From positions 256,001-320,000 of the forward strand of contig CAXVYR010000002.1 of NCBI GenBank assembly GCA_963666975.2: 64,000 nucleotides of DNA, in the 5' to 3' direction. Within the stretch, counting starts at the first letter, position 1. Each line of letters begins with the position of its first letter. The notes under the pieces are model-generated. The model saw only the letters and a program-made list of their open reading frames with translations, was not told the origin of the DNA and did no database searches. The DNA is from Terriglobia bacterium. Lineage in GTDB: Bacteria; Acidobacteriota; Terriglobia; 2-12-FULL-54-10. Shown piece after piece: positions 13,671 to 64,000 of this stretch. The translations under genes were made by a program, and so were the position numbers.

Positions 13671-15554
13671 CTACCAACCGGCGGGAATCTTCTCCGTCCA
13701 GGTCGTCGCGCCCACGGCCTCCATTCCGGCCTCGCCGGCCAGCGAGGAAGTCAGGTGGACCACCTTGCCGCCCACCGAGGTCATCAGCACTTGAATGTCT
13801 GGAATCTGATCCTCCGGGATGGTCAGGAAATCCTTGTCCAGCACGATGAAGTCTGCAAACTTGCCGGGCTCCAGCGTTCCCATGCGGTCCTCGCGCAGCA
13901 CGTAGTACGCCCCCCAGCGTGTGAGCGCCTTCAACTGAATGATCCGGTCCGTCCTTTGATCCGGCCCGTAGACGCGCTTGTCAAAGTCGTGGTACCGGTT
14001 GATTCCCTTCAGGACAAAGAAAAAGATTTTTTGCGGCAGAGGACGGTCGATCTCGAAGCTGGTCCGGACGCCCGCATCGGTCAAAGCCTTGCGCGGCACC
14101 ACCCAACTGGTGTACTCCACACCGTACTGTTTGGCGATGAGCGAGGCCCCGCGGTGGGGCTCCCACAGATTGGTGTTGATCTCGCTCGCCATCATCCCCA
14201 GCCGCTTCATGCGGGGAATCTGGTCCGGCCGCGGCGCGCCTTCGCCGTGGTCAAAGGCGTGGCGTTTGGCGCGGATTTGCTCCAGGGTAAAGCCCGCTCT
14301 GCGGCTCGCTTCTTCAATGGCGTCCATGTAATAGTCAATGTCCTTGTCTCCGCCCGTATGCATGGTGGCGACTCGCATGCCGTTTTCGATGATCCGCTCC
14401 AGGGTCTCTCTTCCTGGCGAGCCGGGAGCGAAATTGCAGCGGGCGGGGCCTCCATAGGTGTATTGCTTCTGGAGTTGTTCCCACTCCGCCCGCACGGGAA
14501 TGCTCATGCAACGGCTTCCGACCGCCCCCCACGCTCCCACCAGCCAGAGATGGTCGGTGCCGTGTCCCACCATGCCGGACAGGTACCGCAAGATATCGGT
14601 GCTCCAGTCGGGCCCCGTGTAGCCCCATGCGAAACGAGCAGGCATCTCTCCCCTCTTGTCCAGGTAATCCAGGGCCTGAAAGTTGTGATAGGCGTAAGGG
14701 GACGACCCGAAGGTCGTGATCCCGTAGCGCGCCCACAACTCCATTTCAGCCTTGAGAATCGCTGCCAGCAGCGGTGTCTTCCCCTTGAACATCGCATCCG
14801 GTTCCATCGGCCGGCTGAAGCCGCCGCCCGCTTGCAAAAATTGTTCGGCACTCTGTTCACCTGCGTTGCCCGTCATCACGGAAAGCGTGGGATGGACCGA
14901 GCGCAGCTCGTCAATGGCTTTCTGGTTTACCACGGAGGTGATAAACCCGTTTTTCACCTTCACCGGGTTGTCGGGAGCCAACTGATCGAGATATTCCTTT
15001 CTGATGCTGTCGCGAAACAGCGCTCCCATCTCTAGCGCCCACTCATATTCGAGCCCCCAGTTGAAGCTGATCAGAATCCATTGTCCCGGCTTCGCCTTGG
15101 CCACCGCCTCCTGCATCACGGTCTCAAAACGCGCCAGCTGTTCTTTCGGCGGAATGCTCGGCAGCCAGCGGTGGATCACCATGTCGTCGTTCGGCAGGAC
15201 GTGCGTGATGGCCCGGGGCTCCTGAAACATCCAGTCGGTGGGATGTTCGTGCGTCAGGATCAGGCTTGGAAGAACGGTTCTCCCCTTGAGGTCAATGGAT
15301 CGGGTCTCGGGTCCGGCCAGAGGCCGGATAGCGTCGTTGCTTCCCGTGGCCAGAATTTTCCCGTCCCGAACCGCCATCGCCTGGGTGATGGTCCCTACGC
15401 GGGACTCGAAGGAGTCATCATCCATCGACACAATTTTTCCGTTGTGGAGGATCATCTGGGGATAACCCAGCTTGGAGGCAATGTCCGCCTGCTGGGCCCA
15501 CCCCGCCTGCAACCCGAGAACAAGCGTCAAAACTGCGGTTAAAGCCTTTTTCAT
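13671..15554 (-). CDS. Exported Amidohydro_3/YtcJ-like protein, solo paralog of the 50-64 kb array
   Basis: Start reassigned to MKKALT (15554); signal peptide, ILHNGKI, DLKGRTVLP, THEH, HTGGDKDID, FDH, FEIDRP, GTLEPGKFADFIVLD. Confidence 0.88.
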   Translation of the reverse strand: MKKALTAVLTLVLGLQAGWAQQADIASKLGYPQMILHNGKIVSMDDDSFESRVGTITQAMAVRDGKILATGSNDAIRPLAGPETRSIDLKGRTVLPSLILTHEHPTDWMFQEPRAITHVLPNDDMVIHRWLPSIPPKEQLARFETVMQEAVAKAKPGQWILISFNWGLEYEWALEMGALFRDSIRKEYLDQLAPDNPVKVKNGFITSVVNQKAIDELRSVHPTLSVMTGNAGEQSAEQFLQAGGGFSRPMEPDAMFKGKTPLLAAILKAEMELWARYGITTFGSSPYAYHNFQALDYLDKRGEMPARFAWGYTGPDWSTDILRYLSGMVGHGTDHLWLVGAWGAVGSRCMSIPVRAEWEQLQKQYTYGGPARCNFAPGSPGRETLERIIENGMRVATMHTGGDKDIDYYMDAIEEASRRAGFTLEQIRAKRHAFDHGEGAPRPDQIPRMKRLGMMASEINTNLWEPHRGASLIAKQYGVEYTSWVVPRKALTDAGVRTSFEIDRPLPQKIFFFVLKGINRYHDFDKRVYGPDQRTDRIIQLKALTRWGAYYVLREDRMGTLEPGKFADFIVLDKDFLTIPEDQIPDIQVLMTSVGGKVVHLTSSLAGEAGMEAVGATTWTEKIPAGW

Positions 15555-46406: not shown

Positions 46407-46484
46407 GTGCCCATATCCCCAGGTGCCCGTTTTGGCTCGTACGAGGTCCTCGGCCCGTTAGGTGCGGGTGGCATGGGAGAGGTG
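46407..46484 (+). pseudogene. N-terminal relic of a Hanks-type Ser/Thr protein kinase
   Basis: MPISPGARFGSYEVLGPLGAGGMGEV (glycine-rich loop); similarity ends abruptly. Confidence 0.8.
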
Positions 46485-46589
46485 CCGGTCGCATTAACCG
46501 GTCTGCGGGTCCTATTACCGCCCATCGAACGACAACGCCAATTGCTGAAACGTTGCCCAGGCTCATGGGGCCTTCGGAGAGGTGCATCA

Positions 46590-49001: not shown

Positions 49002-49123
49002 TGACCGGCCCCCGGTTTTTTGAGCCAAGTTGAAAGTGAGTTTTGCGGCAGATGAGGGGCCCTGGATTTTTGTACCAGTTTCAGGGTGAGTTTTGGGCTG
49101 TTTCCAGGCCTTTCAGATTGCAG
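49002..49123. mobile_element. Abutted IS3 end fragments of the same element as 33617-34033
   Basis: 49002-49052 matches the left end; 49053-49123 matches the reverse complement of the right end. Confidence 0.85.
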
Positions 49124-49164
49124 CTAGACCAATTTCACCGTTAGTGTATAGCATATCCACAGTG

Positions 49165-50139
49165 GCTGAGTTGTCTTTGCGTTTCGACGCGCTCTACGCT
49201 CGGCGGGGACGGCCGTCGAAGCCTCCGGAGCAGTTGATCCGGGCGCTGCTGTTGCAAGTGCTGTATGCGATCCGCAGCGAGCGGCAACTGATGGAGCGGA
49301 TCAAGTATGATCTGCTGTTCCGCTGGTTCGTGGGCTTAGGAATCGATGAGCAGGAATGGGACGCCACGGTATTCACCAAGAATCGGGACCGGTTGCTGGG
49401 CGGCGCGGTCTCGCAACGGTTGCTGGAAGCGGTGCTGGAGCAGGCCCGGAGCCAGGACTTGTTGAGCGAGGAGCATTTCACGGTGGACGGGACGATCCTG
49501 GAAGCCTGGGCCAGCCGGAACAGCTTTGTGCCCAAAGACCCAGCCACGGTGGTGGGGACGGGAGCGCGGGGGAGGAAGTGTTTGCGGGACACGCATGAGT
49601 CGAAGACCGACCCGCAAGCACGCTTATATAAGAAGAGCATGGCGGGCGAAGCCAGACCGAGCTACCTGGGGCATGTGCTGATCGAGAATCGCAAGGGGCT
49701 GGTGGTAGCCGCCTGTGCCACGCAGTCCAGCACGACGGCGGAGCGGGAGGCGGCCCTGGCGATGCTGGACGAGATGGGTCTGCGGCCAGAGAAGATTCCG
49801 CGAACCGGCCGGCGCATCACGCTGGGGGCGGACAAGTTGTATCAGGAGCGGAAGTTTATCGAAGGGCTGCGGCGACGCCAGGTGGTCCCGCATGTGGCCG
49901 AGTACGAGCCCTCGGCGTACTGGCCGAATTTTCTGACCGAGGCGGAACGGAACGCTCCGGGGTTTGCACTCAGCCAGAAGAAACGCAAATTGGTGGAGAG
50001 AGTGTTCGGTTGGGGCAAGCTGGACAGCGTCATGCGCAAAATCAAGTTGCACGGACTGGCTCGGGTGGACTGGTTCTTTCGTTTCCTAGCCACCGCCCAC
50101 GATCTGGTGCGGATGGTGAAGTTGGTTCCGGCGCAGTAA
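49165..50139 (+). pseudogene. IS5-family transposase, 5'-truncated
   Basis: GRPS.PPE.L.RALLLQ.LY.IRSERQL, FTVDGT, LGADK, KRKLVERVFGWGK; N-terminus replaced by IS3 end sequence; probable right end TTTTTCAGCAGCCTG at about 50264-50278. Confidence 0.85.
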
Positions 50140-50313: not shown

Positions 50314-50377
50314 CCGTCAGGGGTTAAAACCCCTGACGGCTGGCCTCGTTGCGGCACGACTGAAGTCGTGCCCTGAC
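50314..50377. repeat. REP-like palindromes
   Basis: CCGTCAGGGGTTAAAACCCCTGACGG and GGCACGACTGAAGTCGTGCC. Confidence 0.6.
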
Positions 50378-50637
50378 GAACCCCTATACATCAATCCGTA
50401 AAATGCTGTAGATTTTTAATGGTTGTGGCCTGCTCGTTGCCGCTCCGCCCGACAAACCATGCATAAGCGAAAAGGAATCGCTACGGGCTCCATTCAGAGC
50501 GAATGCAGGCCCCACCAAACATTAATTTATAGCTTCCTTGGTGAACTAGGCCGAAGCCTGCCCGGTGTATCAGTCTAAATTGAGATGGCAGGCTGGGAGA
50601 AAACAAAGCCTCTTCCCTTTGCCAACGAGAAGCCCTC

Positions 50638-52530
50638 TCACCATTGCGCGGCCTGCCCACCAAGCTCTACCTGGGCTCCGGTCGGCTCCATGTTCCACTC
50701 GCGTGCCAAAGAGGGAACCAGGTGTACCAGCTTGCCACCCACCATCGTCATCAAAACCCGCAGCTTGGGGATGTCATCCACCGGAACCGTCAGGTAGTCC
50801 CTATTGAGTACTGCCAAGTCCGCCCATTTACCCGGCTCGAGCGACCCCAGCACATCTTCCCGCAGCGTCCCGTAAGCCGCCCAGAGCGTCGCCGACTTCA
50901 ACATCGCTTCCCGGCTGATTGCCTGCTGAGGAGCTATGACGTTCCCGTTCATATCCTTTCGGGTTATGCCGGAATAGAGAACCTGGAAGTAGGTTAGGTC
51001 CGTGTATCCAATCGGCCGGTCAATTTCCACACTATTCATGATCCCGGCATCATAGAGAGCTTTGCGCGGAACTACTTGGTTGGCTCCTCGCTCCCCATAA
51101 TCGTCCATGATCTTCTTTCCGCTTCCTTCCCAAATGTAGAAGTCCCAACCACTGCCCATAATGCCCAGCTTCTGGTAGCGCGGAATCTGGTCCGGGCGGG
51201 GATACATTGCCATATGCTCAGTGACGTGGCGCTTGGCGCGGATCTCATCCAGTGTCATGCCAGCATCTTTGCTGGCCTTTTCGATGATGTCGAGGATGAG
51301 ATCAATTTCCCCGTCGGCCATGATGTGATCCCCGGCCAGCCGTCCGCCAGCTTTTATATATTCATAAAGCGCTCGCGAAACATCGGGGTTGGTATATTGA
51401 CACTTTCTTTCGCGCTGCTTCACTTTCGGCGAAGTGCCGGGGAGCTTGCTGCAATTCATGCCCATGTTCGGAACCATTCCTGTCGTCCAGAAGTAGTCCG
51501 AGCCATGTCCGAGCCGGCTGGCTTGAGCCCGGACAAAGTATGGATCGAAAAAGAAATCATTTCGGTACGGCCAAAACCAAGCCCACGCAAACCGGATAGA
51601 CATCTGGCCCTGACGGGACAGCGAGTCATAAGCTTGAATCGCACCTCCCGTATAGAGCGCCGTGGCATTGAGGGTCTGCCCGTAACCCGCCATCCAGGAC
51701 AGTCCCAGCCGATAAATTTCCTTCAGAACCTCGGGGGGGTAAAGAACATCTTGTTCGGGATAGCGATAGCAGACGGCACAGTAACCAGTTTTTTCAACGC
51801 TTCCTTCCCCCGCGCGGGAACCCACCAAGTCATCCAGAGTTCCTGCCTCCGGCTCTGGAAGAAAATAATTTATTTGATCTCCATAGAATTTCTTGGTTTC
51901 TTCCAGCGCCCTCTGGTTCAACACCGCCCCGACAAAACCACCGCGCACAATCACCGGATTATCGGGAGCAGCCAGATCCAGGTGCTCCTTGGTGATCTGC
52001 TGCCCTAAAATACCCATAATCTGGTCTCGCCACTGATATTGTTTCCCATACAGCATACTGATCCGAATCCACTGGCCGGGCTTGGCCTTGAGGACCGCCT
52101 CCTCCAAAACACGCGGAAATTTTTGCAACTGCTCGTCGGGTGGATCTTCCAAGAACCGCTCGATGTGTATATCGTCGGTGACCACTTTTTTGATTATATA
52201 CGGATTCAGCAGGTCCCAGTCCTGCGGGTGATCGTGCGTCGCCCCGAAGCCCGGAGTTACCGTCCTCCCCTTCAGGTCAATGGATCGGGTGCCGCTGCCC
52301 GCCAGGCGGCGAACCTCGGCGTTGCTTCCCACCGCGACGATTTTTCCATCCCGAATTGCAATCGCCTGAGCAATGGTCCCTATGTTCGCATTGACCTCAT
52401 GGTTGTCCACCGTCACGATCTTTCCATTGTGCAGAATCGTATCCGGCGCCTGCTGGGCCCAAACGGGGCTCTGTGCAGCCCAGACAACACACACCAATAT
52501 CGCCATTCCCCAAAAGAGTGGACTCTTCAT
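50638..52530 (-). CDS. Exported Amidohydro_3/YtcJ-like protein, array copy 1
   Basis: Signal peptide, AQQAPDTILHNGKI, THDH, CAVC, EIDRP, GSLEPGKWADL. Confidence 0.9.
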   Translation of the reverse strand: MKSPLFWGMAILVCVVWAAQSPVWAQQAPDTILHNGKIVTVDNHEVNANIGTIAQAIAIRDGKIVAVGSNAEVRRLAGSGTRSIDLKGRTVTPGFGATHDHPQDWDLLNPYIIKKVVTDDIHIERFLEDPPDEQLQKFPRVLEEAVLKAKPGQWIRISMLYGKQYQWRDQIMGILGQQITKEHLDLAAPDNPVIVRGGFVGAVLNQRALEETKKFYGDQINYFLPEPEAGTLDDLVGSRAGEGSVEKTGYCAVCYRYPEQDVLYPPEVLKEIYRLGLSWMAGYGQTLNATALYTGGAIQAYDSLSRQGQMSIRFAWAWFWPYRNDFFFDPYFVRAQASRLGHGSDYFWTTGMVPNMGMNCSKLPGTSPKVKQRERKCQYTNPDVSRALYEYIKAGGRLAGDHIMADGEIDLILDIIEKASKDAGMTLDEIRAKRHVTEHMAMYPRPDQIPRYQKLGIMGSGWDFYIWEGSGKKIMDDYGERGANQVVPRKALYDAGIMNSVEIDRPIGYTDLTYFQVLYSGITRKDMNGNVIAPQQAISREAMLKSATLWAAYGTLREDVLGSLEPGKWADLAVLNRDYLTVPVDDIPKLRVLMTMVGGKLVHLVPSLAREWNMEPTGAQVELGGQAAQW

Positions 52531-52672
52531 AATTCACCACCTTAAATTTAAGCAGTTTGCTAAAAAAGACAGGCCGGACGGAATGCCGCTTCCGTCCGCC
52601 TGCGGACCCGTACCCTCAAACCCCGAAATCCAACTGATCACTGCCCCGACTACCTCGTTCTACCAGGAAAAC

Positions 52673-54544
52673 CTACCATTGCGCAGCGAGTCCGCCAAGC
52701 TCCACTTGGGCTCCGGTCGGCTCCATGTTCAACTCGCGGGCCAGAGAGGGAACCAGATGTATCGTTTTGCCACCCACCATGGTCATCAAAACCCGCAGCT
52801 TGGGGACCTCCTCTACCGGAACCGTCAGGTAGTCCTTGTCGAGCACCACCAGGTCCGCCCATTTACCCGGCTCCAGCGACCCGAGCACATCTTCCCGCTT
52901 CACCCCATAGGCCGCCCAGAGCGTCGCCGACTTCAACATCGCCTGCCGGTCCACCGCCTGTTGCGGCGCGGTTACCTTCCCGTTCTGATCCTTCCGGGTA
53001 ATACCGGAATAGAGAACCTGGAAGTAGGTCAGGTTGGTATATCCGATGGGCCGGTCAATCTCAACACTGTTCATGATCCCAGCCTCATAGAGACTCTTGC
53101 GAGGCACCACCTGCATCGCGCCCCGCTCGCCGTAATCCCGCAGGACCTGCTGCGCGCTTCCTTCCCAGATGTAGAAGTCCCAGCCGCTGGTCATCATGCC
53201 CAACTCTTGATACCGGGGGATTTGGTCCGGTCGCGGATACATAGCCATATGTTCGGTGATATGGCGCTTAGCCCGAATCTCCTCCGGCGTCATGCCGCCA
53301 TCTCGGCTCGCCCTCTCGATGGTGTCCAAGACCAGATCAATTTCTCCATCTCCCATTTGATGATCTCCGAACAGCCGTCCGCCCGCCTTGATGTATTCAT
53401 AAAGAGCTTTCACCATTTTAGGATTGGCGAACCGGCATTTGGCTTCCCGCTGCTTGACCTCCGGGGAAGTGCCGGGCAGCTTGCTGCAGCCGCCGCCCAT
53501 CATCGAAGTCATGCCGGCCACCCAGAAATGATCCGTGCCCGTGTCCTCCCGGCTGACGGCGGCTTGCACAAAATAAGGATCAGAGAACAAGTCATTTCGA
53601 AACGGCCAGAACCAGCCCCAGGGAAGCCGAATGGCCATCTGATCCCGGCGATCCAGGCTGCTGTAGGCGCGAATCGCGCCTCCCGTGTACAGCGCCGTCG
53701 CATTGAGGGTGACCCCATACCCCCCCATCCAGGACAACCCCAGGCGGTAGATATCCTGCAATACCTTGGACGGGTAGAGCACGTCCTGTTCGACATACCG
53801 ATAGCAGGTGGAACAAACCCCCGATTGATCGAAGTCCGTCGGGGCGCCCCCGAGATCCCCCAGCGGCGAGTAGAGAAACTTGTCCCATTCCCCCGCATAG
53901 AACTTTTTCGTCTCCTCAATCGCTCTCTGGTTCATCAAAAGTCCGACAAACCCCCCGCGCACAATCACTGGATTCTGAGGAGCCGCCAAGTCCAGCATCT
54001 GTTTGTTAATCTGCCGGCCTAAAAACGCTGAAACCTCCTCTCTCCACCTGTATTCCTCTCCGTACAGCATACTAATCCGAATCCATTGGCCGGGCCTGGC
54101 CTTCTGGACTGCCTCCTCCAAAACCCGCGGAAATTGTTGCAACTGTTGCTGAGGAGGATCGTTCAAGAAACGCTCGATGTGCATATCGTCGGTGACTACT
54201 TTCTTGACGATATACGGGTTCAGGGGGTCCCAGTCCGCCGGATGGTCGTGCGTCGCGCCAAAGCCCGGAGCCACCATCCTCCCTTTCAGATCCAGGGACT
54301 GCGTGTTGCTGCCCGCCAGGCGGCGAATCTCGGCGTTGCTGCCCACCGCGACGATTCTTCCATCCCGGATTGCAATCGCCTGAGCAATGGTCCCCAAATT
54401 GGAATCGACTTCATGGTTGTCCACCGTCACGATCTTTCCATTGTGCAGAATCGTATCCGGCGCCTGCTGGGCCCAAACGGAGCTCTGTGCAGCCCAGATA
54501 ACACAAACAAGTATCGCAACTCCAAAAAGACGTGTGCTTTTCAT
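52673..54544 (-). CDS. Exported Amidohydro_3/YtcJ-like protein, array copy 2
   Basis: Same motifs; CSTC. Confidence 0.9.
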   Translation of the reverse strand: MKSTRLFGVAILVCVIWAAQSSVWAQQAPDTILHNGKIVTVDNHEVDSNLGTIAQAIAIRDGRIVAVGSNAEIRRLAGSNTQSLDLKGRMVAPGFGATHDHPADWDPLNPYIVKKVVTDDMHIERFLNDPPQQQLQQFPRVLEEAVQKARPGQWIRISMLYGEEYRWREEVSAFLGRQINKQMLDLAAPQNPVIVRGGFVGLLMNQRAIEETKKFYAGEWDKFLYSPLGDLGGAPTDFDQSGVCSTCYRYVEQDVLYPSKVLQDIYRLGLSWMGGYGVTLNATALYTGGAIRAYSSLDRRDQMAIRLPWGWFWPFRNDLFSDPYFVQAAVSREDTGTDHFWVAGMTSMMGGGCSKLPGTSPEVKQREAKCRFANPKMVKALYEYIKAGGRLFGDHQMGDGEIDLVLDTIERASRDGGMTPEEIRAKRHITEHMAMYPRPDQIPRYQELGMMTSGWDFYIWEGSAQQVLRDYGERGAMQVVPRKSLYEAGIMNSVEIDRPIGYTNLTYFQVLYSGITRKDQNGKVTAPQQAVDRQAMLKSATLWAAYGVKREDVLGSLEPGKWADLVVLDKDYLTVPVEEVPKLRVLMTMVGGKTIHLVPSLARELNMEPTGAQVELGGLAAQW

Positions 54545-54659
54545 AAATTACCACCTTGAATTATAAGCAGTTTGCTAAGAAAGCCAGGCCGAACGGAATG
54601 TCCGCTTCCGCTTGGCAGTTTGTGACTTCAAACCTCCGAGAGCCAACTAACCTTTAGTA

Positions 54660-54750
54660 GGTTGTTGAAAAACACCATTTACCCGCTCCCTCACCCCTCG
54701 GCTTCGCTCGGGGCAGGTTTCGCGGCCCGGACTATACACGAACTGTGAAA
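54660..54750 (-). repeat. Dispersed repeat family A, copy 3, inserted in an array spacer
   Basis: Reverse complement TTTCACAGTTCGTGTATAGTCCGGGCCGCG...GAGGGAGCGGGTAAA...TTTTTCAACAACC. Confidence 0.75.
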
Positions 54751-54788
54751 GTGCTTTAATTACTCGTTCCAATTCCTCGCCGGAAAAC

Positions 54789-56669
54789 TTACCATTGCGC
54801 TGCTGCCCCCCCCAGTTCTACCTGGGCTCCGGTCGGCTCCATACCCCATTCGCGGGCAAGGGATGGAACTAGATGGATCGGTTTGCCGCCCACCAGGGTC
54901 AGCAGCACGCGCAGTTTGGCAATCTCTTCCACTGGAACCGTCAGGTAGTCCTTGTCGAGCACCACCAGGTCCGCCCATTTGCCCGGCTCCAGCGACCCTA
55001 GCACATCTTCCCGCATCACCCCGTAGGCCCCCCAGAGAGTCGCCGACTTCAACATCGCCCGCCGGTCCACCGCCTGTTGCGGCGCGGTTACCTTCCCGTT
55101 CTGATCCTTCCGGGTGATGCCGGAATAGAGAACCTGGAAGTACGTCAGGTCGGTGTATCCGATGGGCCGGTCAATCTCGACACTGTTCATGATCCCAGCC
55201 TCATAGAGAGCCTTGCGAGGCACCACCTGCATCGCGCCCCGCTCGCCGTAATCCCGCAGGACCTGCTGCGCGCTTCCTTCCCAAATATAGAAGTCCCAGC
55301 CGCTGGTCATTATGCCCAGCTTTTTGTATCGCGGGATCTGGTCCGGCCTCGGATACATGGCCATGTGCTCGGTGACATGGCGCTTGGAATGAATCTCTTC
55401 CAGCGTCATGCCGGCATCTTCGCTGGCCTTCTCGATGATGTCCAGGATGAGATCAATTTCCCCATCCGCCATCACGTGATCTCCGGCCAGCCGTCCGCCC
55501 GCCTTGATGTATTCATAAAGAGCCTTCGAAACTGTCGGGTCGGCAAATCCGCACTCCATTTCCCGCTCCTTGACCTCCGGGGAAGTGCCGGGCAGCTTGC
55601 TGCAGTCCATCCCCATGTGAGAAGTCATTCCACTCGACCAGAAATAGTCCGAGCCCGTGCCCACGCGGCTGACTTCAGCTTGAAGAAAGTAGGGGTCCGA
55701 AAAGAAGTCGTTTCGATAAGGCCAGAACCAGCCCCAGGCAAAGCGAATGGCCATCTGCTCCCGGCGATCCAGGCTGTTGTAGGCGCGAATCGCGCCACCT
55801 GTGTACAGCGACGTCGCGTTGAGGGTAACCCCGTACCCCCCCATCCAGGTCAGCCCCGCACGGTAGATTTCCCGCAACACCTCGGGCGGGTAGAGCACAT
55901 CCTGTTCCACCTGCCGGTAGCAGACGACACAGGTTCCTGTTTTCTCAAAGCTTTCCAGCGTTACACCCATACCCACAAGGTCTTCCAGCGGATGGTAAGA
56001 AAACTTCTTCGCCTCCCCTGCATAAAACTCTTTTACCAAGTCAATGGCTTTTTGGTTCAACAAAGCTCCGACAAATCCGCCTCGGACCAGCACCGGATTG
56101 TTGGGAGCAGCCAGATCCAGCATCTGTTTGTTAATCTGCCGCCCCAGAAAGCCTGAGATTTCATTTCCCCACCGGTATTCTTTCCCATAAAGCAGACTAA
56201 TTCGGATCCATTGGCCGGGCTTGGCCTTGCGGACTGCCTCCTCTAATACCCTCGGAAATTGTTGCAACTGTTGATCGGGCGGATCGTTCAAAAACCGCTC
56301 AATGTGCATATCATCGGTGACCACTTTTCCTACGATATGCGGGTTCAGCGGGTCCCAGTCCTGCGGGTGATCGTGCGTGGCCCCAAAGCCCGGAGCCACC
56401 ATCCTCCCTTTCAGATCCAGGGACTGCGTGTTGCTGCCCGCCAAGCGGCGAATCTCGGCGTTGCTGCCCACCGCGACGATTTTCCCATCCCGGATTGCAA
56501 TCGCCTGAGCAATGGTCCCCAAATTGGAATCGACTTCATGGTTGTCCACCGTCACGATCTTTCCATTGTGAAGAATTGTATCCGGCGCCTGCTGGGCCCG
56601 AACGGTGCTCTGTGCAGTCCAGATGACACACACTAATACCGCAACTCCCCAAAAATGTAGGCTCTTCAT
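54789..56669 (-). CDS. Exported Amidohydro_3/YtcJ-like protein, array copy 3
   Basis: Same motifs; CVVC. Confidence 0.9.
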   Translation of the reverse strand: MKSLHFWGVAVLVCVIWTAQSTVRAQQAPDTILHNGKIVTVDNHEVDSNLGTIAQAIAIRDGKIVAVGSNAEIRRLAGSNTQSLDLKGRMVAPGFGATHDHPQDWDPLNPHIVGKVVTDDMHIERFLNDPPDQQLQQFPRVLEEAVRKAKPGQWIRISLLYGKEYRWGNEISGFLGRQINKQMLDLAAPNNPVLVRGGFVGALLNQKAIDLVKEFYAGEAKKFSYHPLEDLVGMGVTLESFEKTGTCVVCYRQVEQDVLYPPEVLREIYRAGLTWMGGYGVTLNATSLYTGGAIRAYNSLDRREQMAIRFAWGWFWPYRNDFFSDPYFLQAEVSRVGTGSDYFWSSGMTSHMGMDCSKLPGTSPEVKEREMECGFADPTVSKALYEYIKAGGRLAGDHVMADGEIDLILDIIEKASEDAGMTLEEIHSKRHVTEHMAMYPRPDQIPRYKKLGIMTSGWDFYIWEGSAQQVLRDYGERGAMQVVPRKALYEAGIMNSVEIDRPIGYTDLTYFQVLYSGITRKDQNGKVTAPQQAVDRRAMLKSATLWGAYGVMREDVLGSLEPGKWADLVVLDKDYLTVPVEEIAKLRVLLTLVGGKPIHLVPSLAREWGMEPTGAQVELGGAAAQW

Positions 56670-56823
56670 AATTCACCACCTCGAATTGTAAGCAGTTCGC
56701 TAAGAAAGTCAGACCAAACGGAATGCCGCTTCCGTCCGCCTGCAGACCGTGCTTTCAAACCTCGAAATCCAACGGATTTCTGGCCCGGCTATCTCGGTTC
56801 TACCAGGGTTCTACCAGGAAAAC

Positions 56824-58701
56824 CTACCATTGCGCAGCCGGTCCGCCGAGTTCTACCTGAGCCCCCGTGGGTTGCATGCCTAACTCGCGGGCCAGGGATG
56901 GAACCAAATGGACCACTTTGCCGCCCACCATAGTCATCAGGACCCGAACATTCAGAATGTCATCCACGGGAATGGTCAGGTAGTCTCTGTCCAATATCAC
57001 CAGGTCTGCCCATTTATTGGGCTCCAGGGAGCCCATGCGATCCTCGCGCATAGCATAATAAGCTCCCCAAATCGTCGCCGACTTGAGTATGGTTTCGCGG
57101 TTCACCGCCTGATTGGGGGCCGTTATATTGCCATCCTGATCCTTCCGGGTAATCCCTGCATAGAGGACTGTGAAGAAAGTCAGGTCGGTGTATCCAATGG
57201 GCCGGTCAATTTCGATGCTTGTCCTCACGCCGGCATCGAGCAGACTCTTCCGCGGGATCACCCATTGTGCCGCCTCCTCTCCATAGTCCCTCAATACCTC
57301 CTGCCCTCTTCCTTCCCAAATGAACAGGTCCCAGCCGCCCGTCTGTATACCCAGGTTCTTGATCCGAGGGATCTGGTCGGGACGAGGATTCATCCCCATA
57401 TGGTCATAGGTGTGCCGCTTCGCCCGAATCTCCTCTATTGTCATGCCCGCGTCTTTGCTGGCCTGCTCAATAATATCCAGAACGTGATCGATCTCCTTGT
57501 CGCCGACCATATGCGCTCCGGCGTAGCGGCCGCCGTCCTTGATGTATGCATACAAGATATCCCGATTCTCCTTGCCGCTGGGAGTATCCGGATCAAACTT
57601 GCAACTACCTTCCCGCTGTTTCACTTCGGGGGAGGTGCCCGGAAGCGTGCTGCAATTTCTGCCGTAGTCGGATGGGATGGCTCCGTTCAGCCAGAAGTAA
57701 TCTGATCCTCTGCCCTTCATGGTGATTATAAGCCTGCGAAGATAGGGGTCGAAGAGGATATTCTTCCGTTCCGGCCAGAAGTAAGTCCAGGGAAGCCGGA
57801 GCGACATCTCTCCGCTGCGGTCCAGCGCATCGTAGGCCGCAATCGCCCCGGCCGTATACATATTCGATGCGTTCATGGTGACTCCATAGCCTGCCCACCA
57901 GGATGTCCCCAAACGGTAGATTTCCTGCAACACATCCGGCGGGTAGAGCACGTCCTGTTCAAACTCCCGGTAACAGACCGCGCAGGTTCCGGTTTCCTCC
58001 ATGCGCGCGTTCACCGGCCTGTCGATCATGTCAAACTTTTCCCATTCCGCACCGTAATACTTCTTTACTTCGTCAATGGCATTCTGGTTTGCCACCATCC
58101 CGACAAAGCCCGCACGAACGATCACCGGATTATTGGGAGCAGCCAGATCCAGCATTTGCTTGGTTATCTGGCGCCCGAGATACCCGGAGATCCTCGTCCT
58201 CCCCCGATACTCTTTCCCGAACAGCATGCTGATCCGAATCCATTGGCCGGGCCGGGCCTTCCGGACTGCCTCCTCGAGAACTCGCGGAAACCTCTGGAGT
58301 TGCTGCTCGGGGGAATCTTCCAGGAACCGCTCCAGGTGCAGATCGTCTGTGACCACCTTTTTTACGATGTAGGGATTCAACGGGTCCCAGTCGGTGGGGT
58401 GATCGTGTGTGGCTGCCATGCCCGGCAGCACCGTCCGCCCCTTCAGGTCAATGCTCCGGGTATTGGGGCCCGCCAAGGCCCGAACCTGAGCGTTGGTTCC
58501 CACGGCCAGGATCGCATCTCCCCGGACAGCCAAAGCCTGAACGATGGCGCCTATGTTTGCATTGACCTCATGGTTGTCCACCGTCACGATCTTTCCGTTG
58601 TAGAGAATGGTATCCGGCGCTTGCTGGGCCCGGAGGGGACTCTGCACAGCGCAAAGGACACACATTGTTACCCCAACCCGCCAAATCCATCGACTTATCA
58701 T
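56824..58701 (-). CDS. Exported Amidohydro_3/YtcJ-like protein, array copy 4
   Basis: Start reassigned to MISRWIW (58701) because the upstream DNA matches the shared spacer; CAVC. Confidence 0.9.
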   Translation of the reverse strand: MISRWIWRVGVTMCVLCAVQSPLRAQQAPDTILYNGKIVTVDNHEVNANIGAIVQALAVRGDAILAVGTNAQVRALAGPNTRSIDLKGRTVLPGMAATHDHPTDWDPLNPYIVKKVVTDDLHLERFLEDSPEQQLQRFPRVLEEAVRKARPGQWIRISMLFGKEYRGRTRISGYLGRQITKQMLDLAAPNNPVIVRAGFVGMVANQNAIDEVKKYYGAEWEKFDMIDRPVNARMEETGTCAVCYREFEQDVLYPPDVLQEIYRLGTSWWAGYGVTMNASNMYTAGAIAAYDALDRSGEMSLRLPWTYFWPERKNILFDPYLRRLIITMKGRGSDYFWLNGAIPSDYGRNCSTLPGTSPEVKQREGSCKFDPDTPSGKENRDILYAYIKDGGRYAGAHMVGDKEIDHVLDIIEQASKDAGMTIEEIRAKRHTYDHMGMNPRPDQIPRIKNLGIQTGGWDLFIWEGRGQEVLRDYGEEAAQWVIPRKSLLDAGVRTSIEIDRPIGYTDLTFFTVLYAGITRKDQDGNITAPNQAVNRETILKSATIWGAYYAMREDRMGSLEPNKWADLVILDRDYLTIPVDDILNVRVLMTMVGGKVVHLVPSLARELGMQPTGAQVELGGPAAQW

Positions 58702-58870
58702 AACTTTTAACCTTTCAGCTATTGTGGGCAGCCTACTAAGAAAACCAGGCTGGCAGGATGCCGTTCCCACCAGCCTGGCGAATTGTGACTTCAAAGCTCC
58801 CCGGCTAACTCCCGGCTAACTCGATTGTTAATCTCTCGGTTAATTTCTTGCTACCGTCCTCAGGGGAAAC

Positions 58871-60736
58871 TTACCATTGCGCGGCCAACCCGCCAAGTTC
58901 CACCTGGGCCCCCGCAGGCTGCATGCCCAACTCACGGGCCAGGGAGGGAACCAAGTGTACCACCTTGCCGCCGACCATGGTCATCAAAACACGGAGGTTG
59001 AGAATGTCATCCTCCGGAACCGTCATGTAGTCCTTGTCGAGCACGATCAAGTCCGCCCATTTGCCTGGCTCCAGGGAGCCAAGCTGATCCTCTCGCATGG
59101 CGTAGTAAGCCCCCCAAAGCGTGGCGGACTTTAACATGGCTTGCCGGCTCAACGCCTGCTGCGGTGACGTAATAGCGCCGTTTTGATCCTTTCGGGAAAT
59201 TCCTGCATAGAGGACCGTGAAGAAGGTCAGGTCGGTGTATCCAAGGGGCCGGTCAATTTCGACACTCGTCCTGACTCCGCCATCGAGCAGGCTTTTTCGC
59301 GGGACGACCCATTGAGCCGCCTCCTCTCCGTAGTCCCTTAACACCTCTTGTCCTCTCCCTTCCCAGATGTAAAAGTCCCAGCCGCCTGTTTGCATGCCCA
59401 GATTCTTGAGCAGCGGGATCTGGTCCGGACGAGGATTAATTGCCATGTGGTCATAGGCGTGCCGCTTGGCCCGAATCTCCTCCAGTGTCATCCCCGCATC
59501 CTTGCTGGCTCGCTGGATGATCTCCAGAACGTAATCGATGTCCTTGTCGCCGCCGGTGTGCATCCCGGTAAATCGGCCGCCTGACTTGACGAGGTTATAT
59601 AAGGCCCGCTCAGCTGCGCTGCCTGGCACAAAACTGCATTCGGGTTCCTGCGCTTTTACCTCCGGGGAAGTGCCCGGCAAGGTGGTGCAGTCGGTGCCGA
59701 TCCCAGCCGGCCAGACTCCACCCATCCAGAGGTGATCCGATCCTATTCCCTGCATGAGGTTCATGGTAGCTCGAAAATAGGGGTCGGCAAAGTGGTCCGT
59801 TCCGTTCGACCCGAGCCAGGTCCAGGGAATTCGAATCACGATTTCGTCATTCCGGTCCAGGGTGCTGTAAGCGTTTAGGGCAGCGGCCGTGTAGATGGCC
59901 GATGCGTTTAAGGTCACCCCATAGCCAGCCCACCAGGAGGTCCCAATGCGGTAAATCTCCCGCAAAACATCATTCGGGTAGAGCACGTCCTGTTCTACAC
60001 CGCGGAAGCTGACGCTACCGAGTCCGTTTTGCTCAACCTCCGGCCCCAGAGGCCCCCAATGAGGCATGTTATCGCCCCCGTTCTCTTTGTACCACTGATT
60101 GGTCAGCTCATACGCCATTTGGTTGACCACCATTCCGACGAAGCCAGCGCGCACCAACACCGGGTTATCAGGAGCCGCCAGATCCAGTTGCTGCTTGGTA
60201 ATCTGCCGCCCCAGGAACCCTGTATTCTCTCTCATCCCTCGATATTCTCTGCCATGAAGCAGGCTGATCCGAATCCATTGGCCGGGCTTGGCCGCCCGAA
60301 CCGCCTCCTCCAAAACACGCGGGAATTGTTGGAGGTTCTGAGCCGGTGCTTCATTCAAGAAGCGCTCAATGTGCATATCATCGGTGACCACCTTCTTGAC
60401 AATGTAGGGATTCAGTTGGTCCCAGTCCATCGGGTGGTCGTGGGTGGCGGCAAAGCCCGGCAGCACGGTCCGACCTTTCAGGTCATGGGACTGGGTGTTA
60501 CTGCCTGCCATGCGGCGAATCTGTGTGTTGCTTCCCACGGCAACGATATCTCCATCCCGGATCGCAATCGCCTGTGCGATGGTGCCTACGTCTGCATTGA
60601 CCTCATGGTCGTCCACTGTTACGATCTTCCCGTTGTAAAGAATGGTATCCGGCGCTTGCTGGGCCCAGAGGAGGCTCTGTCCGGCCCAGAGTACACTTAC
60701 CATTACTGCAAATTGCAAAATCCATACCCGTCTCAT
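58871..60736 (-). CDS. Exported Amidohydro_3/YtcJ-like protein, array copy 5
   Basis: Same motifs; CxxC absent (GSVSFR). Confidence 0.9.
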   Translation of the reverse strand: MRRVWILQFAVMVSVLWAGQSLLWAQQAPDTILYNGKIVTVDDHEVNADVGTIAQAIAIRDGDIVAVGSNTQIRRMAGSNTQSHDLKGRTVLPGFAATHDHPMDWDQLNPYIVKKVVTDDMHIERFLNEAPAQNLQQFPRVLEEAVRAAKPGQWIRISLLHGREYRGMRENTGFLGRQITKQQLDLAAPDNPVLVRAGFVGMVVNQMAYELTNQWYKENGGDNMPHWGPLGPEVEQNGLGSVSFRGVEQDVLYPNDVLREIYRIGTSWWAGYGVTLNASAIYTAAALNAYSTLDRNDEIVIRIPWTWLGSNGTDHFADPYFRATMNLMQGIGSDHLWMGGVWPAGIGTDCTTLPGTSPEVKAQEPECSFVPGSAAERALYNLVKSGGRFTGMHTGGDKDIDYVLEIIQRASKDAGMTLEEIRAKRHAYDHMAINPRPDQIPLLKNLGMQTGGWDFYIWEGRGQEVLRDYGEEAAQWVVPRKSLLDGGVRTSVEIDRPLGYTDLTFFTVLYAGISRKDQNGAITSPQQALSRQAMLKSATLWGAYYAMREDQLGSLEPGKWADLIVLDKDYMTVPEDDILNLRVLMTMVGGKVVHLVPSLARELGMQPAGAQVELGGLAAQW

Positions 60737-60968
60737 AAATTTACCTCATCCTTTCATGTCGCAGCCTTTTAAAAATATGCGAGAAGTCGTGGACATCTTT
60801 ATCCTTGTCCTTAGATTGGCAAGAGGCCCCCGCATAGGGAGTACGTGGAAGAGTTGGAGAATGCGGAGACGTATCGTTCCCTTATCTGAGAGACCTCTAG
60901 CCGAAGCGTTGGAAAAGTGTAGGAGGAAGCCGAAGCTTCCTCCTTGCAAAACACCCTACTTACCATAG

Positions 60969-62831
60969 CTACCATTTGGAAGGTAATCCGCCGAGCTCCA
61001 CCTGTGCCCCCATGGGCTGCACCCCGATCTCGCGTGCCATCGAGGGAACCAAGTGCACGATCTTGCCTCCTGTCATGGTCATCAACACCCGCAGCTTCGG
61101 AATGTCATCCACGGGGATGGTCAAGTAATCTTTGTCTAAAACGATCAGGTCTGCCAACTTGCCGGGCTCCAACGAGCCGAGGTCATCTTCCCTGAATACA
61201 TAATAGGAACCCCAGGTTGTGGATACCTTCAGCATCGTTTCCCGGTCCACCCGCTGCTCGGGAGCAATCACATTTCCGTTCATGTCCCGGCGGGTAATTC
61301 CGGTGTGAAGGACCTGGAACATGTTCAGGTCGGTGTAACCCAAAGGCCGGTCCAACTCCAGCGTATTCATAATCTGGTTGGTAAGCAACCTCTTCCGGGG
61401 TGTCACCCATCCCGCAGCTTTTTCCCCGTACTCGCGCAGGATTCTCTCCCCGTTGCCTTCCCAGAGATAGAAGTCCCAGTTGCCCACCATCATACCCAGA
61501 TTCTTGATGCGCACCGCCTGATCATCCCTGGGAGACATCTGTCCATGATCGTAAGCATGCCGTTTGTCCCGAATCTGCGCCAGCGTCATCCCGGCGTCCT
61601 TGCTCCCCTGCTCGATGACATCCAGCAGGTGATCAATGTCCTTGTCCCCGCCGGTGTGGATGAGCGCGATCCGTCCGCCTGCCTTGACAAAGTTGTAAGT
61701 CCATTTGCGCATATCCGAACCGGGGGCGAGGGTGCAACCCGGCTCTCTTGCCTTCACATCCGGGGAAGTGCCCGGCAAGGTGGAGCAGTCAAAGGTCATC
61801 ATGGGAGAGGCGCCGACAAACCAGAAGTAATCCGTGCCTTCTCCCTGGCGAGTCGCGATATCAGCCAAAAAGTAGGGATCTTCGAAAGCTTTGTTAAAGG
61901 GCGGCCAGAAATATCCCCAGGGCAGGCGTATGGGCATTCTGTCTTCCCTTTGCAAGGTCCGGTAGCCGCGGATCTGCGCCGGGGCGTACAACATAGTGCC
62001 GTCGGTGGTGACGCCGTAGCCAGCCAGCCAAGACAGGCCATACTCGTTCATCTTCGTCCATACTTCGGGGTGATCCTTGTAGTAGATGATGTCCGGCTCG
62101 ATGAAGCGATAGATGACAGAGCCAGTGCCTGTCTCCTCGAAATTCCGTTCGGTGGCGAAAATATCCCCGACCCCGTCTCCCCAGAATTTTCTCATCTCCT
62201 CCAGGGCCCGTTCGTTGACCACCGCTCCCACAAAGCCGGCGCGGACCAGCACCGGATTATTCGGAGCCGCCAAGTCCAGATGCTGCTTGGTAATCTGGTT
62301 CCCCAACAGCGCTGTAATCTCTGCCCTATACCGATACTGTCTTCCAAAGGTCAGCGTAATGCGAACCCATTGACCCGGCTTGGCCGCACGGACCGCCTCC
62401 TCCAAAACACGCGGGAACTTCTGCAACGTCTCATCAGGAGGATCCTCCAAAAACCGTTCAATGTGGATATCGTCGGTCACCACTGCTTTTACAATGTATG
62501 GATTCAGCGGGTCCCAGTCCTGCGGGTGATCATGCGTATTGATGATGCCCGGCATAACCATCCGCCCTTTTAGGTCAATCACCTTCGTGCCCGATCCCGC
62601 CATGGCTCGAATCCGGGTATTGTTGCCCACGTGCAAGATTTTTCCATCCTTGATATGGATGGCTTGCGCAATGGTGCCCAGGTTCGAGGTGAACGATACG
62701 TTATCCACTGTCACAATTTTCCCGTTGTAAAGAATCGTATCCGAGCTTTGTTGGGCGCTCACCGGGCTACCTAGAAACGGTAACCAGACGCTGATCCACA
62801 ACACAAAAGCAGATAACTTATTTATACTCAT
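60969..62831 (-). CDS. Exported Amidohydro_3/YtcJ-like protein, array copy 6
   Basis: Signal peptide, NTHDH, HTGGDKDID, ELDRP; CxxC absent. Confidence 0.9.
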   Translation of the reverse strand: MSINKLSAFVLWISVWLPFLGSPVSAQQSSDTILYNGKIVTVDNVSFTSNLGTIAQAIHIKDGKILHVGNNTRIRAMAGSGTKVIDLKGRMVMPGIINTHDHPQDWDPLNPYIVKAVVTDDIHIERFLEDPPDETLQKFPRVLEEAVRAAKPGQWVRITLTFGRQYRYRAEITALLGNQITKQHLDLAAPNNPVLVRAGFVGAVVNERALEEMRKFWGDGVGDIFATERNFEETGTGSVIYRFIEPDIIYYKDHPEVWTKMNEYGLSWLAGYGVTTDGTMLYAPAQIRGYRTLQREDRMPIRLPWGYFWPPFNKAFEDPYFLADIATRQGEGTDYFWFVGASPMMTFDCSTLPGTSPDVKAREPGCTLAPGSDMRKWTYNFVKAGGRIALIHTGGDKDIDHLLDVIEQGSKDAGMTLAQIRDKRHAYDHGQMSPRDDQAVRIKNLGMMVGNWDFYLWEGNGERILREYGEKAAGWVTPRKRLLTNQIMNTLELDRPLGYTDLNMFQVLHTGITRRDMNGNVIAPEQRVDRETMLKVSTTWGSYYVFREDDLGSLEPGKLADLIVLDKDYLTIPVDDIPKLRVLMTMTGGKIVHLVPSMAREIGVQPMGAQVELGGLPSKW

Positions 62832-63104
62832 TGCTTCAGTACCTTTCCTAAACTAAGCTGCAGGTTGTTCGCCGCCTTGCAGAAAAATCGCCGGGCAATC
62901 GGAGAGATTTGCCCGTAGCCGGACTAAAGGACGCTCAGAAAGTATACCACTAATCCATGTCTTTTAGCGCATTAGGGCAGAGGAGATTTCTTCCCCGATC
63001 CCCGCTTGGATAGATGCCGAAATTCCTGTCTGCTTCGCCGGCGTATTGGAAGAGGCTGCTCAAGCACAAACCGAGGCCGGCACATTAAGGAAAGAATTTT
63101 TCAT

Positions 63105-64000
63105 TTACCACTGAGCAGCAGGACCAAGTAAAGCTTGGGCACCGGTCGGTTGCATGCCAATTTCCCGAGCCACCGACGGAACCAAGTGAACGGCTTTGCC
63201 TCCCACCACGGTCATGAGCACTCGGATGTTCTCAATGTCGTTTTCGGGTATTGTCAAGTAATCCCGATCGAGCACGATGAAATCGGCCCACTTCCCGGGT
63301 TCAAGCGAACCCAGTTCGTTCTCTTTCAGGATGTAATACGCACCCCAGGTCGTCGCCGTTTTCAGGGCGAGTTCCCGGCTGATCTTTTGATTCTGCCCGT
63401 AGACTTTGCCATCCCACGCCTTCCGATTGATCACACGCGCCAATGTCCAGAAGATGGTCAGATTGGTTGTGGACAATGCCCGATCGACTTCAAAGCCGCT
63501 GGGGATTTGGGCCTCGATCAACGACTTTTTCGGAACCACCCACTCCAGCGCTTTTTCCCCATAGGTTTCCAATATGCCAGGAGAGGCCTGATAGATTTCA
63601 AAAGCATCTCCCCCCAGGACCAGACCCAATTCCTTAATGAGCGGCAGCTGATCCGGCCGGGGGGACATCACATTGTGGTCGAACGTGTGTCTTTTGGCGC
63701 GGATCTGTTCTGGTGTGAAACCAGCCTCCTTGCTGGCTTTTGAAATAATATCGATTATGTTGTCGATGTCTCTGTCACCCACAGTATGGGTTACCGCGTA
63801 CCGGCCACCCATTTTCACCCACTGATACAGCATTTCGTAGTTTCTGGTTCCGGGATCATAAGCGCATGTTCGACGGCGTTGGGCTGCTTGCTCCGACAAG
63901 TCCACACGGGGCACCAAAGTGGTGCATCCAGCACCTACGGTTTGGGCGCCCCGGGAGCCGCTGTGCCAAAAATAGTCATTCCCGTTGCCGTTCATGGAAA
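63105..64000 (-). CDS. Amidohydro_3/YtcJ-like protein, array copy 7 (5' part outside window)
   Basis: HTVGDRDID, FDH, FEVDR, GSLEPGKWADFIVLD, C-terminal GPAAQW. Confidence 0.88.
   Translation of the reverse strand, partial: SMNGNGNDYFWHSGSRGAQTVGAGCTTLVPRVDLSEQAAQRRRTCAYDPGTRNYEMLYQWVKMGGRYAVTHTVGDRDIDNIIDIISKASKEAGFTPEQIRAKRHTFDHNVMSPRPDQLPLIKELGLVLGGDAFEIYQASPGILETYGEKALEWVVPKKSLIEAQIPSGFEVDRALSTTNLTIFWTLARVINRKAWDGKVYGQNQKISRELALKTATTWGAYYILKENELGSLEPGKWADFIVLDRDYLTIPENDIENIRVLMTVVGGKAVHLVPSVAREIGMQPTGAQALLGPAAQW

Follow-up and report, generated by a model that had tools for sequence, protein, structure and literature searches.

A tandem array of seven old, putatively exported Amidohydro_3 paralogs in a Terriglobia bacterium

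We analysed a stretch of 64,000 nucleotides (hereafter the window) from a Terriglobia bacterium of the Acidobacteriota (assembly GCA_963666975.2, contig CAXVYR010000002.1, positions 256,001 to 320,000). On its minus strand, the region 50638-64000 is filled by seven co-oriented open reading frames (ORFs), named A1 to A7, all encoding paralogs of the Amidohydro_3 family (PF07969). An eighth member, B8, lies apart from this tandem array. The genes are listed below with their PF07969 expectation value (E) and their protein identity to outside proteins (numbered P).

50638..52530, minus strand: A1, 630 aa, predicted exported Amidohydro_3 paralog; E 6e-31; 99.8% to P0006
52673..54544, minus strand: A2, 623 aa; E 1e-27; 83% to A3; ortholog P0008, 90%
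54789..56669, minus strand: A3, 626 aa; E 3e-32; ortholog P0004, 89%
56824..58701, minus strand: A4, 625 aa, ATG at 58701; E 1e-33; ortholog P0007 (625 aa), 94%
58871..60736, minus strand: A5, 621 aa; E 4e-30; ortholog P0009, 93%
60969..62831, minus strand: A6, 620 aa; E 8e-38; ortholog P0001, 94%, and P0002, 74%
63105..64000, minus strand, open at the window end: A7, C-terminal 297 aa visible; E 4e-26
13671..15554 (ORF to 15647), minus strand: B8, dispersed eighth member, 627 aa; E 7e-36; predicted signal peptide ...GWA/QQ, C-terminal Trp

An initial annotation of this DNA had described seven co-oriented paralogs over more than 13 kb, an eighth member at 13671-15554 and ten amidohydrolase-superfamily genes in all. 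The ORF listing, Pfam and a repeat finder bear out the array, and the same ten genes were recovered when ORFs of at least 200 aa were scanned (A1-A7, 13671-15554, 11768-13612 and 35176-36549). Intergenic gaps in the array measure 142-273 nt. The repeat finder detected seven in-register copies with a spacing of 2014-2133 nt and a DNA identity of 60-86% over 300-nt blocks; this seven-copy periodicity is far beyond chance, and the divergence is far too great for a collapsed or duplicated assembly. PF07969 matches reached 93-132 bits for the seven array copies and 125 bits for B8, against a Pfam gathering cut-off of 29.7, with E ranging from 1e-26 to 1e-38 over the eight proteins. They cover the model from position 1-4 to 471-472 of 472 in the six complete array copies and B8, and 272-472 in A7. 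The full-length form of A7 is P0270 (626 aa; from the cluster of the window itself), identical at a rounded 100% over the 297 visible residues, with one K/R difference seen by eye; the A7 gene is complete in the source organism. For A4, the ORF finder extended the gene to a TTG at 58794. This start was rejected in favour of 58701, because P0007 aligns from 58701 and because the longer reading contains a 15-bp hairpin and U-run. The array of seven is the longest run of family members documented in this analysis.

Identity among the array copies is 48-83% for proteins and 52-84% for DNA, and proteins of the array are 43-46% identical to B8. Identity decays along the array, A2 and A3 being closest, then joined by A1, followed by the pair A4 and A5, then A6 and A7, which is the pattern expected from serial tandem duplication. 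With the Nei-Gojobori method, synonymous divergence (dS) was 0.49 for the closest array pair and ranged from 0.86 to saturation for the remaining pairs, and the ratio of nonsynonymous to synonymous divergence (dN/dS) was 0.14-0.27. These values mark the copies as old, each of them being maintained by purifying selection. Outside the variable segments described below, regional dN/dS was 0.08-0.35.

Traces of exchange between neighbouring copies were measured as follows: among codons coding for the same residue in both copies, the fraction differing synonymously was computed. For A2 and A3 (52673-56669), this fraction was 0.05 over codons 21-80 and 0.03-0.13 over codons 461-540, and rose to 0.31-0.47 over codons 101-240. 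For A1 and A2 (50638-54544), it was 0.08-0.12 over codons 1-60, versus 0.5-0.6 in the centre. This synonymous mosaic suggests gene-conversion tracts between neighbours in the conserved ends, from which the variable centre would escape.

We then placed the copies among their relatives. A word-indexed search with A6 returned 563 proteins at E <=1e-10; among the best 120 of these 563, which were the rows examined, all organism names were Acidobacteria where given, the other named rows bearing a functional label only. An exhaustive search with A1 against representatives at 50% identity gave 17,069 matches at E <=1e-3, 4,163 at 1e-10 and 248 at 1e-30, and a look-up in the ESM Atlas returned acidobacterial Amidohydro_3 clusters only. 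A FastTree tree was computed for 122 rows, of which 8 were the window copies and the others the 114 A6 matches (out of 120) with at least 590 aa. In this tree, A1 to A6 were each sister to one outside protein with a support of 100, namely those given above at 89-99.8% identity (P0001 for A6); the ortholog of A7 is P0271, at 85%. The window copies are dispersed across this tree, with A7 and B8 in the other half. An IQ-TREE tree was built from 40 rows, in which the 8 window copies were joined by 32 outside proteins picked after the first tree had been viewed, and the groups constrained in the approximately unbiased (AU) test were likewise named after that tree had been viewed. Forcing the seven array copies to be monophyletic cost 2656 log-likelihood units (p-AU 1e-7), and forcing A1-A3 together cost 184 (p-AU 1e-66). 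Given the copy-specific orthologs and the AU rejections, the duplications are therefore older than the split from the ortholog-bearing genomes, and a lineage-specific burst is ruled out. The initial annotation had envisaged that copies might fall into separate, ancient, well-characterised subfamilies: the subclades to which they belong are indeed old and distinct, with orthologs in other records, but all of them are uncharacterised.

Family members occur almost exclusively in Acidobacteriota, as a rule in several copies and often in clusters. Co-location of homologs was judged indirectly, from contigs of equal size and from locus tags. A contig size of 31,968 bp is common to five listed proteins (P0016, P0043, P0046, P0083, P0303), one of 15,581 bp to three (P0060, P0088, P0278), and sizes of 3,643 bp and 4,795 bp to two each; a contig size of 361,906 bp is common to the A5 ortholog P0009 and the A7 ortholog P0271. 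One acidobacterial metagenome-assembled genome (MAG) has seven family members, mostly dispersed, with adjacent locus tags for two of the seven. P0006, near-identical to A1, shares a contig size of 4,519,525 bp with P0013, P0017, P0018 and P0090, which are not encoded in the window (best window match 58-77%), and the genome of the window, or one nearly identical to it, probably has at least 12 family members. Another acidobacterial MAG (locus L027) has three tandem copies of a distant relative, at 26-27% identity, and locus L004 has two family copies 8 kb apart. Among the matches listed in a genome scan with generic motifs, L001-L004 were the only close loci (36-43%), and none of the four contained an array of this family. 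Being multi-copy and clustered is a habit of this family in Acidobacteria, so that the length of the array, first thought unusual, is less exceptional than claimed. No paper on the array or its clade was found in the openly searchable full-text literature, which does not cover subscription journals.

An AlphaFold2 model of A1 was computed from an alignment of 59 rows, consisting of seven window copies and 52 of the 120 A6 matches, picked by hand. The model (predicted local distance difference test, pLDDT, 93.1; predicted template modelling score 0.91) has a (beta/alpha)8 barrel with a composite beta domain made of N- and C-terminal parts. The top Foldseek matches, 364 of them at E <=0.001, were all amidohydrolase-superfamily barrels. 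The best ones in the PDB were 3icj and 3igh (E 3e-24 and 2e-23; 18-19% identity; TM score on the target 0.77-0.78), followed by deaminases, imidazolonepropionase and triazine hydrolases at E of about 1e-14 to 1e-11. All 59 rows have H99, H101, H402, H439 and D504. In a broader alignment of 102 rows (four window copies, A1, A4, A6 and B8, with 98 of 149 new representatives of 560-720 aa), they are found in 102, 101, 101, 101 and 67 rows respectively, N205 and R313 in all 102, and D571 in 101. We take these His and Asp residues to be the HxH after strand 1, the His after strands 5 and 6 and the Asp after strand 8, the strand numbers being assumed.

How the copies relate to known proteins was also examined. 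The two Pyrococcus structures, 3icj and 3igh, are uncharacterised YtcJ-like proteins and are also the best PDB matches by sequence (E 7e-13 and 2e-10). They have in common with the array the N-terminal composite domain, the HxH, the H..GD motif, the second His and the Asp, but differ by their low identity (18-19%), a length shorter by about 150 residues and the presence of a GVK...DG lysine motif; no signal peptide was noted for them. BwBSH1 and BwBSH2, the metal-dependent bile salt hydrolases of Bilophila, resemble the array by their Amidohydro_3 domain, Sec signal peptide and several paralogs per genome; they are secreted, with adjacent and 'three tandem-arranged' copies, and carboxylated Lys373 and His196 of BwBSH1 are essential by mutagenesis (10.64898/2026.04.05.716592). 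BwBSH1 differs in being 945 aa long, in its extra C-terminal domain, in its taxon and habitat, and in its Lys373 and His196 positions, which are not conserved in the array. The array copies, at 620-630 aa, have no such extra domain, their Amidohydro_3 match ending within about 27 residues of the C-terminus. For the Streptomyces epsilon-lysine acylases SmELA and SgELA, a YtcJ-like, metal-dependent amidohydrolase nature, His/His/His/His/Asp ligands and hydrolysis of N-acyl amino acid amide bonds are reported (PMC10699109); the conserved oxyanion-hole His of SgELA, H177, is missing from the array copies. NfdA (N-substituted formamide deformylase), aminoacylases and AtzC, listed as characterised PF07969 members in the Bilophila report (10.64898/2026.04.05.716592), have this Pfam family in common with the array. 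NCBIfam models of the TRZ/ATZ type and other hydrolases stayed at 18-63 bits, their cut-offs being 225-703. Molinate hydrolase and phenylurea hydrolase B (4ub9, 4wgx, 4whb) were weak profile matches, limited to the C-terminal 40-55 barrel residues (E 2e-7 to 3e-4) and without full-length similarity.

All six complete array copies start, as first described, with a Sec-type signal, followed by AQQAPDTIL in five and AQQSSDTIL in the sixth. Under simple rules, the hallmarks of Sec export and of cleavage by signal peptidase I are present: a basic n-region (1-2 K/R in the first 10 residues), a hydrophobic h-region (best 10-residue hydropathy 2.2-3.2) and small residues at -1/-3. A small-x-small or L-x-A site precedes QQ in all seven complete window copies (VWA/QQ, VRA/QQ, LRA/QQ, LWA/QQ, VSA/QQ and GWA/QQ, the slash marking the cleavage-like site), and P0270 has SQA/QQ. 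In the A1 model, this region forms a helix (residues 4-25) at lower pLDDT. The N-terminus is signal-like in 104 of the 114 full-length homologs, and 97 of the 114 carry AQ[QE] within the first 45 residues. We infer from these features that the proteins are Sec-exported, either periplasmic or secreted. Lipoprotein or twin-arginine (Tat) export was considered and rejected, neither a conserved lipobox Cys nor a common RR motif being seen by eye.

At the other end, all seven array copies and B8 end in Trp, as noted before for the array. Five copies carry the GAQVELGGxAAQW motif, A6 ends in ...GGLPSKW and A7 in GAQALLGPAAQW; among full-length homologs, the last residue is Trp in 104 of 114 and Tyr in 9. 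The C-terminal GG...W was rejected as a sorting signal: only five residues follow the GG, without a hydrophobic stretch, and the tail is packed in the model, with a pLDDT of about 94-98. This judgement is made against what we assume to be the usual types of sorting signal. Two cysteines are conserved in the 59-row alignment, C360 in all rows and C377 in 58. Furthermore, a CxxC (TGxCxxCYR) lies at A1 residues 251 and 254, at the end of the first variable segment (window ~51769-51780); it is present in A1-A4, not in A5-A7 or B8, and its two residues are found in 30 and 28 of the 59 rows. Both pairs would fit disulfides of an exported protein.

Sequence variation between the copies is concentrated in two segments, HV1 and HV2:

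51775..51918, minus strand: HV1, A1 residues 205-252 and the equivalent positions in other copies; identity between paralogs 0.13-0.26, with indels
51367..51423, minus strand: HV2, A1 residues 370-388; identity 0.20; spans C377, the second Cys of the pair, and beyond

Mean pairwise identity among the six complete copies was 0.13-0.26 around residues 205-250 and 0.20 around 370-385, versus 0.6-0.9 elsewhere. HV1 sits after the APxNPVxVRxGFVG motif, where the initial annotation had placed a variable segment. It starts at the invariant N205, at the end of a strand, and contains the only stretches of the A1 model under pLDDT 50 (227-229 and 236-240); 10-residue blocks over 221-250 average 52-79. 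HV2 follows the strand aligned with the lysine-bearing strand of classical relatives, presumably beta4 in the numbering of the superfamily. Between paralogs, HV1 is 12-48% identical, with 3-19 gapped columns. Seven close ortholog pairs (85-99.8% overall) have an HV1 identity of 79-100% and no gapped column, the rest of the protein being at 83-100%; for A6/P0002, a more distant pair (74% overall), the figures are 54% and two gapped columns. Because HV1 is conserved between orthologs and divergent between paralogs, it is a fixed, constrained, paralog-specific element rather than a free-drifting linker.

The spaces between the genes were searched for signals, and hairpins followed by a U-run were found in four of them:

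52569..52603, minus strand: terminator-like hairpin and U-run, A2/A1 gap; z -1.6
54583..54616, minus strand: homologous hairpin and U-run, A3/A2 gap; z -2.4
56710..56743, minus strand: homologous hairpin and U-run, A4/A3 gap, then promoter-like CTGACT-16-TACAAT; z -0.2, no better than shuffles
58744..58779, minus strand: 15-bp hairpin and U-run, A5/A4 gap; -33.8 kcal/mol, z -3.1, 0 of 200 shuffles folding as well

A1 to A4 are preceded by a shared module made of this GC-rich hairpin and U-run, a TACAAT/TATAAT-like hexamer and an AAGGTGG ribosome-binding site. A terminator scan listed two of the hairpins, with 12 sites in the whole region versus a shuffle mean of 15.3, i.e. no excess. We infer that the array genes are separately terminated and probably transcribed singly. 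In minimum-energy folds, a second, small conserved hairpin is seen upstream of A1-A3 (52531-52620, 54545-54634 and 56670-56759, minus strand), in which ACUGCUU pairs with the AAGGUGG ribosome-binding site; in such a fold it could mask translation initiation. Over the whole window, no Rfam family reached its gathering score, which leaves the intergenic modules without a match to a known RNA or riboswitch, and no tRNA was found.

Starting from the observed array, with its age, its selection, its fold, its conserved residues and its loops preserved between orthologs, the reading that we find the most probable, with reasonable but not strong confidence, is that of a battery of hydrolases, periplasmic or secreted, whose substrate preferences have diverged. 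Seven or more genes of ancient duplication would encode Sec-exported, metal-dependent hydrolases of an uncharacterised, Acidobacteriota-centred, YtcJ-like Amidohydro_3 clade. Each copy would be a working enzyme that purifying selection maintains, probably as a transcription unit of its own. The copies would share the barrel, the metal-binding His/Asp set, the disulfide-type Cys pair and the packed, Trp-ending tail, and differ in two loop segments placed after barrel strands on the catalytic face, loops after barrel strands forming the face where the amidohydrolase superfamily binds its substrate. Acting outside the cytoplasm on heterogeneous organic-nitrogen compounds, such a battery would make their nitrogen or carbon available to the cell; both the divergence in specificity and this class of substrate are what the loops and neighbouring genes would point to. 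The diversifying periplasmic repertoire proposed in the initial annotation thus fits the export signals, the kept catalytic His/Asp, the purifying selection and the loops conserved in orthologs only.

Several observations weigh against this reading. The bridging carboxy-lysine motif (G-[IV]-K...DG) was looked for in the alignments: 3 of 102 rows have K at its column, none of them a window copy. At the column aligned to the K of P0200, P0242 and P0243, A1, A4 and A6 have V, I and S, and B8 is gapped, in a stretch without K; in an 8-row alignment, the same region of A2, A3, A5 and A7 reads T, T, W and an S/R-G stretch. The HMMER alignment had put the lysine position opposite Y346, an assignment rejected in favour of V353 in the 102-row alignment, and neither is a lysine. 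The auxiliary or oxyanion-hole His that precedes the invariant Asn is likewise in no window copy, the stretch being GFVGxxxN in the array copies and GFITSVVN in B8; H stands there in 24 of 102 rows. Because both the bridging Lys and the auxiliary His are absent, the metal centre is probably not the classical lysine-bridged binuclear one, and the metal centre and chemistry may differ from those of amide hydrolysis. No NCBIfam functional model was reached by A1, A6 or B8: HutI, guanine deaminase, TRZ/ATZ, SsnA, prolidase and others all stayed below their curated cut-off, the best at 63.3 bits versus 391, with partial matches. The amide, formamide and N-heterocycle substrates named in the initial annotation are candidates only. 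No positive selection was seen in the regional dN/dS analysis, where HV1 and HV2 stayed below 1 in most pairs; only A4/A5 came to about 0.8-1.0 (HV1 0.83 over 36 codons, HV2 1.04 over 20 codons), HV1 being so poorly alignable that its dS values are unreliable. The signal peptides were judged by simple rules and not by a trained predictor, and HV1 and HV2 were placed at the catalytic face by the succession of secondary-structure elements rather than by coordinates. Lastly, an IS5-like transposase stands between the array and the context genes described below, whose co-regulation with the array is only a possibility.

Among other explanations, a battery of the same exported proteins could serve defence or interference, each copy hydrolysing one antibiotic, toxin or signalling amide of competitors. 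Export and paralog-specific loops would suit this role. A weak virginiamycin-B-lyase-like match (47.1 bits versus a cut-off of 50) was obtained for the protein at 22182-24074, a similar protein (53.9 bits) being found in L003, and the weak C-terminal matches to molinate and phenylurea hydrolases point the same way. We nevertheless consider defence unlikely, as no sign of an arms race is seen, dN/dS being well under 1 and the loops conserved between orthologs, and as no resistance or regulatory gene lies beside the array within the window.

A broader proposal, which we hold to be no more probable than the defence role, starts from the lysine-less rows, 99 of the 102 (98 representatives and four window copies). 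The family might be a large, unstudied, lysine-less YtcJ-like branch with a rebuilt metal centre, either mononuclear or bridged by, for example, the invariant Asp345, Glu502 or Cys360, and possibly with a reaction new to Amidohydro_3. The acidobacterial arrays would then be a birth-and-death repertoire, in which gene conversion keeps the scaffold uniform and paralog-specific loops fix specificities for soil organic nitrogen.

Somewhat less probable still, the copies might have altered catalytic sites and act as binding proteins, or be pseudoenzymes. The absence of the carboxy-lysine K and auxiliary H from all window copies speaks for it, both residues being essential in a related Amidohydro_3 enzyme (10.64898/2026.04.05.716592). 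Against it, none of the 59 rows departs from the HxH, His402, His439 and Asp504, and N205, R313 and D571 are retained in 101-102 of the 102. Moreover, mononuclear members of the amidohydrolase superfamily work without the lysine.

The initial annotation had also put forward a heteromeric complex, in which the paralogs would be subunits of one assembly and the genes adjacent for joint production. Their adjacency and common orientation agree with it, and the conserved Trp-ending tail (104 of 114 homologs) could be a docking element. However, terminator-like hairpins separate at least four gene pairs, members are mostly dispersed in the other acidobacterial MAG (adjacent locus tags in two of seven only), and four more members seem to be present outside the window, in the genome of the window or a nearly identical one; the copies differ in loops, the remaining surface-forming sequence being conserved. 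A complex is thus unsupported, and we give it a very low probability. As for an assembly artefact or a very recent amplification, the regular 2-kb period and nothing else speaks for it, and the dS (at least 0.49) and dN/dS values exclude it to near certainty, together with the DNA identity of 52-84% and the own ortholog (89-99.8%) of each of A1-A6, as the initial annotation had expected from the divergence.

If the copies are indeed a battery of exported hydrolases, they have some bearing on the nutrition of Acidobacteria, which are among the most abundant soil bacteria and whose feeding on complex organic nitrogen is poorly known. Conserved, predicted to be exported, multi-copy and largely confined to the phylum, with loops fixed per paralog, these proteins are concrete candidates for such feeding. 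An active site with four His and an Asp, and without carboxy-lysine and auxiliary His, makes the clade worthwhile for enzymology. The array also offers a clean natural case of old tandem duplicates, in which neighbours appear to exchange conserved ends and retain distinct centres. The expansion of the gene family is genuine and tidy, without amounting to a genetic system of a new type.

The remaining features of the window are the following:

49093-50139, plus strand: IS5-like DDE transposase (DUF772 and DDE_Tnp_1), directly downstream of the array
46407-48437, plus strand: pyrroloquinoline quinone (PQQ) beta-propeller dehydrogenase fused to an N-terminal cytochrome c domain
35176-36549: allantoinase/dihydroorotase/hydantoinase-like amidohydrolase; TIGR03178 at 349.5 bits, just under the cut-off of 357.85
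22182-24074, minus strand: CarboxypepD_reg and virginiamycin-B-lyase-like / SGL beta-propeller protein; 47.1 bits, under the Pfam cut-off of 50
16830-21835, plus strand: ATP-binding cassette (ABC) ATPase, 912-aa ABC-2 permease fused to ABC_transp_aux, and DUF4340 protein
11768-13612: Amidohydro_1 protein, 614 aa, adjoining B8; prolidase-like match; C-terminal TIG / 'choice-of-anchor Z' repeat
9977-10960, minus strand: rve-type integrase, near B8
3780-9406, minus strand: type IV pilus assembly block with PilM, PilO and a 935-aa secretin with an AMIN domain

Downstream of A1, the genes code for the IS5-like transposase, the PQQ-dehydrogenase/cytochrome c fusion, a UbiD-like decarboxylase and a major facilitator superfamily (MFS) transporter, and further on for a xanthine-dehydrogenase-like molybdoenzyme, the allantoinase/hydantoinase-like amidohydrolase, a luciferase-like monooxygenase and a CarboxypepD_reg-type TonB-dependent receptor; on the other side, the genes upstream of A7 fall beyond the window. 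By their predicted functions, this neighbourhood would fit uptake and breakdown of nitrogen-rich compounds. Within it, 34138-45809 is a cluster resembling N-heterocycle or purine catabolism, in which the luciferase-like monooxygenase, the amidohydrolase, the MFS transporter and the UbiD-like decarboxylase are found with xanthine-dehydrogenase-like FAD (flavin adenine dinucleotide) and molybdopterin subunits and a Pfam-less 404-aa protein. In the 500-nt spacer between the transposase and A1, two perfect short hairpins stand side by side at 50330-50390 (minus-strand view, by eye), which may be an insertion-sequence end or the A1 terminator.

Some of these neighbours recur at other loci. In L004, a DDE transposase (8396-9772) lies beside a family member, and an Amidohydro_3 gene is beside a 606-aa Amidohydro_1 gene (444-4481), in divergent orientation there. 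The virginiamycin-B-lyase-like protein of L003 (7993-9687) is directly beside a family member. Finally, the transporter set at 16830-21835 resembles what we take to be the gliding-associated transporters of the GldA/F/G type.

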